A stretch of DNA of 64,000 nucleotides, taken from assembly GCF_022846255.1 (NCBI RefSeq), contig NZ_AP025682.1. One strand, given 5' to 3'. How positions within the stretch are numbered: position 1 is the stretch's first letter; every line of letters starts with the position of its first letter. Below, one piece after another: positions 7,695 through 7,935 of this stretch. The DNA is from Escherichia coli. GTDB taxonomy: Bacteria; Pseudomonadota; Gammaproteobacteria; Enterobacterales; Enterobacteriaceae. Under the pieces are notes generated by a model, which had not been told where the DNA came from, ran no database searches, and worked only from the letters and a program-made list of their open reading frames with translations. The position numbers were made by a program, and so were the translations under genes.

Positions 7695-7759
7695 ATTGCA
7701 GGCGTAAAAAAGCGGCGTTGTTAGCCGCTTAAGACTGATGACAAACATCGAATCGCCCG

Positions 7760-7855
7760 ATGCGCAAGCTTATCGGGCCTACACAAGCCATGCAATATAT
7801 TGAATTTGCATGATTTTGTAGGTCGGATAAGGCGTTTACGCCGCATCCGGCATCA
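7760..7855. repeat. REP (repetitive extragenic palindromic) element(s) between yacH and lpd
   Basis: gtaggtcggataaggcgtttacgccgcatccggca matches REP consensus. Confidence 0.75.
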
Positions 7856-7871
7856 ACCACGAGCACTTTAT

Positions 7872-7916
7872 CAACAATCTGAAGCGGCCAGAATAGCCGC
7901 TTCTTAATTTGCCGGA
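7872..7916 (-). terminator. putative lpd terminator hairpins
   Basis: Two GC-rich inverted repeats (aagcggc...gccgctt; tttgccgga...tccggcaaa) directly downstream of the lpd stop; U-tract weak. Confidence 0.4.
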
Positions 7917-7935
7917 TGTTCCGGCAAACGAAAAA

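Follow-up and report, generated by a model that had tools for sequence, protein, structure and literature searches.

The window, by which we mean the whole 64,000-bp stretch of Escherichia coli DNA that was analysed, is reversed relative to K-12 and aligns in a whole-window comparison to positions 137173-71510 of K-12 MG1655 (65,664 bp). It includes the genes acnB, yacH, lpd, aceF, and aceE, of which yacH and lpd converge (Table 1). The spacer between the stop codons of these two genes has the 241 bp given by the original prediction, and the roughly 70 bp that it gave for K-12 proved to be 70 bp exactly, as lpd of MG1655 ends at 129336 and yacH occupies 129407-131260. We looked for equal spacer lengths by whole-region alignment and found them unequal at yacH-lpd (241 versus 70 bp). 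The difference is a single 171-bp block that is extra in the window, and the sequence on the lpd side of it is identical in both genomes. The short-allele strains EC2257, GN05056, and D4 also have a 70-bp spacer, which is identical to that of K-12 from the A-run to the lpd stop. An exact look-up of the Lpd protein returned E. coli-type contexts only, of which nine have the 70-bp spacer and one has the 241-bp spacer.

Table 1. Genes and sequence features at and around the yacH-lpd spacer, in window positions.
Feature	Position	Strand	Description
acnB	2961-5711	-	
yacH	5913-7694	+	TAA stop at 7692-7694
lpd	7936-9360	-	Stop codon at 7936-7938
aceF	9568-11157	-	
aceE	11172-13835	-	
yacH-lpd intergenic spacer	7695-7935		241 bp (K-12: 70 bp), between the stops of converging genes
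Left terminator hairpin copy	7706-7730		A-run, then AAGCGGC-GTTGTTA-GCCGCTT; the minus strand reads hairpin plus TTTTTT
BIME-1 left arm	7731-7745	+	15 nt, AAGACTGATGACAAA; family consensus GAGACTGATGACAAA; inverted repeat of the right arm
z1-like REP (palindromic unit)	7753-7783 (approx.)	+	TCGCCCGATGCGCAAGCTTATCGGGCCTACA; CTAC at foot (7779-7782)
BIME-1 L linker	7784-7816		Conserved core TGCAATATATTGAATTTGCA at 7791-7810
Putative IHF-like site	7793-7805	-	ATTCAATATATTG; read from sequence, 12/13 matches to WATCAANNNNTTR, the IHF consensus
Y-type REP	7817-7851	-	GCCGGATGCGGCGTAAACGCCTTATCCGACCTACA; GTAG at 7818-7821; inverted relative to the z1-like REP
BIME-1 right arm	7867-7882	+	16 nt, TTTATCAACAATCTGA; family consensus TTTGTCAGCAATCTGA; inverted relative to the left arm
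Right terminator hairpin copy	7882-7910	+	AAGCGGC-CAGAATA-GCCGCTT (7882-7902), then CTTAATTT; terminator-like for yacH transcripts
lpd-proximal hairpin	7908-7928		TTTGCCGGATGTTCCGGCAAA; identical in K-12, outside the polymorphism

The extra 171 bp comprise one complete BIME-1 and a further copy of the terminator hairpin, which is single in K-12. Two REPs are present, a Y-type and a z1-like one, where at least one had been called from the sequence. The original prediction of a REP-element polymorphism stands insofar as the variation is REP-based; what varies is a whole BIME-1 with a duplicated hairpin and not a lone REP. Both REPs are imperfect GC-rich palindromes with GTAG or CTAC at the foot, they are mutually inverted, and they recur many times in the genome (queries that contain the spacer match a median of 20-27 megablast places per genome). 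The Y-type REP has no mismatch to the 35-nt pattern, which is matched three times in the window against 0.00 matches expected from shuffles, and the core of the long L linker is an exact 20-nt match to the L motif (0 expected in shuffled sequence). The arms that bound the element both fall inside a 39-nt inverted pair, and the element measures 151 bp from arm to arm (7731-7881).

On either side of the element lies a hairpin, and the two copies have identical stems and loops that differ at five of seven positions. The left copy, which is likely an intrinsic terminator for lpd transcripts as predicted from its stem and U-run, corresponds to the sole hairpin of K-12, whose loop (GTGGTTA) is one base off the left loop. 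A scan for consensus terminators picked out a single site, the right hairpin on the plus strand. The spacer as a whole is predicted to fold far better than shuffled sequences on both strands (z = -7.3 and -6.7). Inspection of the open reading frames of the spacer gave no sign of a protein or small RNA in the extra DNA; the only reading frame that reaches into it (7836-8033, 65 aa, minus strand) shares sequence with the 3' end of lpd and with the Y REP.

The z1-like REP aligns with the z1 position of other BIME-1 copies and is a divergent variant, in which the stem (7755-7778) reads CCCGAT...ATCGGG rather than the CCTGAT...ATCAGG of the family. These changes are paired. The same stem is intermediate in E. 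whittamii (CCTGAT...ATCGGG) and reads CCCGAT...ATCGAG in E69, a pattern that looks like compensatory evolution.

BIME-1 elements, also called RIB ("reiterative ihf BIME") or RIP ("repetitive IHF-binding palindromic"), consist of a z1 and a y REP in single copy, joined by a long L linker, well conserved and often with an IHF site (PMC3333891), and their size is given as 140 bp (PMC1187871). The yacH-lpd element shares the inverted Y and z1-type REPs, the long conserved linker with a putative IHF-type site, the single copy of about 140-150 bp, the extragenic position at 3' ends (here between the stop codons of two converging genes), and the variability among isolates, in which the element is wholly present or wholly absent. 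We see no essential difference from BIME-1; the z1 REP is a divergent variant. The identification follows from the exact matches to the Y-REP and L motifs, none of which is expected by chance, from the inverted arms and the direct hairpin repeat, and from the 171-bp block itself. Non-repetition of the two REPs and the linker elsewhere in the genome, which would undo this identity, is excluded. We are thus confident that the spacer carries a complete BIME-1 between two copies of a terminator hairpin, and that it represents one allele of an old presence/absence polymorphism.

Relatives of the element are widespread. Scanning one genome per species with the L motif yielded 88 enterobacterial copies with the same layout of arm, REP, L, REP, and arm. 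These derive from E. albertii, E. whittamii, Escherichia sp. E1V33, the divergent "E. coli" E69 and SCPM-O-B-8794, and Pseudocitrobacter. Within E. coli, the copy between artJ and rlmC is 85% identical to the yacH-lpd copy over 162 bp, arms included.

Presence or absence of whole BIME-1 elements among E. coli isolates, along with length polymorphism of BIME-2, is attributed in PMC1187871 to Bachellier et al. 1997, and strain-specific segments hold 71% of the K-12 BIME-1 length (PMC1187871). The yacH-lpd difference is an instance of this published phenomenon and thus of an already known kind: a routine strain polymorphism of a long-known E. coli intergenic repeat. K-12 has no BIME at this site, so a list of BIMEs based on K-12 would miss the locus. 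BIME-2 arrays are likewise built from REPs and variable among strains, but they combine z2 and y REPs with short linkers, are arranged in tandem, and vary in copy number, which matches the difference between yacG and mutT and not that at yacH-lpd.

The duplicated hairpin is a property of the family. Both arms are recognisable in 42 BIME-1 copies, 27 of which, representing 24 distinct loci, have a flanking direct repeat that scores above the 99th percentile of a control made of mismatched left and right pairings. The repeat directly adjoins the arms, measures 21 nt at the median (range 13-30 nt), and is locus-specific in sequence. At 20 of the 24 loci it folds at -5 kcal/mol or better, an A-run precedes the left copy at 16, and a T-run follows the right copy at 14. 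Such loci occur in Escherichia and Pseudocitrobacter and include L006, L010, L013, L015, L032, L041, L045, L094, L102, L107, L114, L121, and L127. The yacH-lpd copy is the most decayed example, with identical stems and different loops, and its direct-repeat score of 11 lies barely above the control 99th percentile of 10. We also considered the right hairpin as an inverted copy of the left. At yacH-lpd the direct score is no higher than the inverted one (12), and the two orientations are not separated; across the family, the direct one scores better at 19 of the 24 loci. The sequence rules out that the two yacH-lpd loops are reverse complements of each other, as they are in L015.

Empty alleles with a single hairpin are found at two loci. 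At yacH-lpd, all four empty E. coli alleles that we inspected have the same single hairpin. Between agp and yccJ, the site is filled in 89 E. coli genomes and in E. whittamii, with two copies of AAACTCCCCCGCGAGAAGCGGGGGA(GT), and K-12-type strains have an empty site with exactly one copy of the hairpin. A third filled and empty pair was sought at the argG-side locus of E. whittamii (L114), for which the E. coli matches were all paralogous BIME-1 copies and the orthologous site was not recovered. In Escherichia sp. E1V33, two BIME-1 units stand in tandem (L071:1700-2150) with three copies of one hairpin, AAAGGCGCTTCGGCGCCTTT, between and around them, which looks like duplication of a unit made of hairpin and element.

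The simplest reading of the filled and empty pairs is insertion with hairpin duplication and loss by slippage. The insertion of BIME-1 at yacH-lpd would have doubled the entire target hairpin, leaving the A-run with the left copy and the T-rich tail (T-run) with the right copy, and the element could be lost by precise excision or slippage between the two hairpin repeats. More generally, BIME-1 may be a present or former mobile element that targets intrinsic terminators, inserts between the stem and the T-run, and duplicates the entire hairpin. We put this forward tentatively and consider it a minority prospect: the pattern of hairpin duplication is solid in the data, and its link to insertion chemistry is uncertain. 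If true, the target-site duplication would be set by DNA structure (13-30 nt, locus-specific) and not by a fixed stagger; a bidirectional terminator would be split into two outward-facing halves, so that both convergent transcripts would read through BIME-1; the flanking repeats and the palindromic body would explain the precise loss of whole elements; and the filled and empty alleles at yacH-lpd and agp-yccJ would be natural examples of before and after.

The hairpin repeats set BIME-1 apart from the modes of spread proposed for other REP-based elements. REPINs (REP doublets, proposed to be non-autonomous elements mobilised by RAYT) likewise comprise two inverted REPs and a spacer, are predicted to form a long hairpin, and behave as a unit that is present or absent. 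The REPIN and RAYT models rest on IS200/IS605 chemistry, in which transposition by Y1 enzymes leaves no target duplication (PMC2817692; PMC3333891), whereas BIME-1 is bracketed by a duplicated hairpin at 24 distinct loci. Flanking hairpin repeats are thus a poor fit to the duplication-free Y1 chemistry proposed for the spread of REPs and BIMEs. In vitro, TnpA(REP) cuts at C|T close to REPs (PMC3333891).

BIME-1 also resembles MITEs such as ERIC/IRU, Correia, and RUP in several respects. Like these, BIME-1 is short, non-coding, and intergenic, with terminal inverted arms (recognised in the 42 copies) and flanking direct repeats, and its empty sites carry one copy of the repeat; at yacH-lpd the loops of the two copies have diverged. 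In classical MITEs the duplication is short and fixed in length, e.g., TA (PMC2229807), whereas the segment duplicated around BIME-1 has 13-30 nt depending on the locus and corresponds to a whole terminator hairpin. The literature that we searched, which lay outside the primary BIME papers of the 1990s, contains no mention of hairpin duplication around BIME-1, and we claim no priority. If not already described, the duplicated hairpins constrain how these abundant repeats are inserted and lost.

The long yacH-lpd allele is present in 493 of 5,426 complete E. coli genomes (about 9%), and the remainder lack the whole block. Among the 493, 474 are at least 99% identical to the window over a 301-bp query. 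Carriers include CFT073, Nissle 1917, ABU 83972, ATCC 25922, 536, LF82, and NRG 857C, all of which belong to phylogroup B2. The short allele is found in K-12, BL21, O157, O104:H4, and one ST131 strain. The long allele has been visible in public reference genomes for more than 20 years. The element accounts for the length difference from K-12 at this spacer and marks a haplotype of the CFT073/Nissle type.

The allele is old. E. whittamii Sa2BVA5 (L103), "E. coli" E69 (L060), and SCPM-O-B-8794 (L055) are filled at the orthologous site and have the same two loops in their hairpins. The element of the window differs at 10 of 151 positions from that of E69 and at as many from that of E. whittamii, and lpd is 96-97% identical between the window and E. 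whittamii, SCPM-O-B-8794, and E69 (last 625 bp). Filled sites in three divergent Escherichia lineages and the divergence of the element itself point to an old insertion. Searching with the L motif returned nothing at yacH-lpd for E. albertii or Escherichia sp. E1V33, where a mutated L motif would escape detection. A homology search with YacH returned only E. coli and Shigella among the best 120 matches, a restriction that reflects the hypervariability of this protein.

A recent insertion is a rival reading. BIME-1 would then have entered the terminator in the ancestor of one B2 sublineage, and K-12 would retain the ancestral, never-occupied site. The low frequency of filled genomes, their near-identity, the B2 membership of the recognised named carriers, and the single intact hairpin of the empty site are all in keeping with such a history. 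It is nonetheless unlikely, because the same two loops occur at orthologous filled sites in E. whittamii, E69, and SCPM-O-B-8794, the number of element differences from E69 and E. whittamii places the insertion before those splits, and the two hairpin copies have diverged at five of seven loop positions. For the short allele of K-12, we lean slightly towards a product of precise excision rather than a site that was never occupied, since the filled allele is common to three divergent Escherichia lineages. Over the 8 nt that follow the hairpin, the K-12 tail and the right tail of the long allele differ at three positions. With the loops differing at 5/7 and the tail at 3/8 positions, the exact K-12 sequence follows neither from a simple duplication nor from a simple excision of recent date.

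Alternatively, homologous recombination could have brought the long allele into a B2 sublineage, with another Escherichia species that carries it as the donor. In favour of this, the ~190 bp at the spacer end of lpd make up a haplotype block of their own. lpd of the window is recombinant, matching the short-spacer strain GN05056 over positions 1-1235 save for three differences and being identical thereafter to FDAARGOS_536, which has a long spacer. This close to the indel, the divergence between long and short E. coli haplotypes is unusually high, with 4-5 differences from short-allele strains in one 95-bp bin of lpd. In the same bin, however, E. whittamii, SCPM-O-B-8794, and E69 are even further from the long E. 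coli haplotype (4-7 differences). The right flank has the E. coli-type bases GCAAACGAAAAA and not GCACACGAAGAA of E69 or GCACACAAAGAA of E. whittamii, which argues against recent import, and no donor was found that is closer than 6.6% element divergence. We regard introgression as improbable.

The element may also alter transcription at the 3' ends of both genes. On the short allele, the one hairpin, flanked by A7 and T6, would act as a bidirectional terminator. On the long allele, the A-run and the T-run are separated, so each transcript would have to cross BIME-1 before it meets a hairpin followed by a U-run. Transcripts of lpd (minus strand) would reach this combination only at 7730-7706 and those of yacH (plus strand) only at 7881-7910. 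Both mRNAs would thus read through BIME-1 and gain a structured 3' UTR that is about 170 nt longer, the two 3' UTRs are predicted to overlap in antisense, and the L linker would offer a putative IHF site. Judged from sequence, the longer predicted 3' UTRs could change mRNA stability or IHF-dependent topology at the end of the pyruvate dehydrogenase operon.

It is conceivable that the element has been retained as a selected regulatory module because it alters lpd or yacH expression, whether through mRNA stabilisation, IHF and gyrase topology, or the antisense overlap of 3' UTRs. REPs reportedly stabilise the mRNA upstream of them and are bound by IHF, Pol I, and gyrase (PMC3333891), predicted structure is strong on both strands, and the element persists across species with intact REP and hairpin stems while the loops and linker edges vary. 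We give this little credence, as 91% of complete E. coli genomes do without the element, and the requirements of the element itself would equally lead one to expect conserved stems. Misassembly of a repeat can be dismissed as the source of the extra 171 bp, since nothing beyond the capacity of REPs, as repeats, to confuse assemblers speaks for it, and it is refuted by 493 genomes finished independently and by contigs of other collections (L128), in which the identical sequence stands between unique flanks.

Outside setA, aceF, and yacH, the only indels of at least 3 bp relative to K-12 lie in the three spacers yacH-lpd, aceF-lpd, and yacG-mutT. Whole-window alignment thus bears out the original prediction that these spacers account for nearly all of the length differences not explained by the three genes. 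Its statement that the latter two are ~117 bp longer in K-12 was also accurate, with 117 bp for aceF-lpd and 118 bp by alignment for yacG-mutT. The extra DNA of K-12 is REP-based at yacG-mutT, where the copy number of a BIME-2-like unit differs, and is an ERIC element and not a REP at aceF-lpd.

The aceF-lpd spacer has 207 bp in the window (9361-9567) and 324 bp in K-12 (L001:5589-5912). In K-12 it contains an ERIC/IRU element of ~127 bp just upstream of lpd, which is absent from the window; there, the window and GN05056 instead have ~17 bp of unrelated sequence. Within the K-12-only block lie AAGTAAGTGACTGGGGTGAG, which is the ERIC2 primer sequence minus its 3' end, and the complement of ERIC1R. 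The yacG-mutT spacer (25204-25305) has one BIME-2-like unit in the window and two in tandem in K-12, and is an instance of the published BIME-2 length polymorphism. Between the called ORFs, the distance is 215 bp in K-12 versus 88 bp, which exceeds the aligned difference of 118 bp because the mutT ORF of the window runs 9 bp further. That ORF has 132 instead of 129 aa, with its last codons and stop inside a REP.

Several further differences from K-12 affect genes. setA is missing, with ~40 bp (57877-57918) replacing 1,261 bp of K-12 (77592-78854), and its loss makes up most of the net length difference. aceF encodes 529 aa, compared with 630 aa in K-12, owing to the loss of 303 bp (101 codons) within the repeated lipoyl-domain region. 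This could be a real recombination between domain repeats or a repeat collapsed in assembly. FDAARGOS_536, whose yacH-lpd spacer is 100% identical to that of the window, has a full 630-aa aceF. yacH is hypervariable, and its 3' part contains diverged internal repeats (self-matches ~95-100 bp apart). The last 237 bp of the gene are 86% identical to K-12, and YacH homologues from E. coli and Shigella, taken from the best 120 matches, have 584-662 aa and 80-99% identity. Near its end, at 63290-63324, the window has a further Y-type REP with two mismatches to the pattern.
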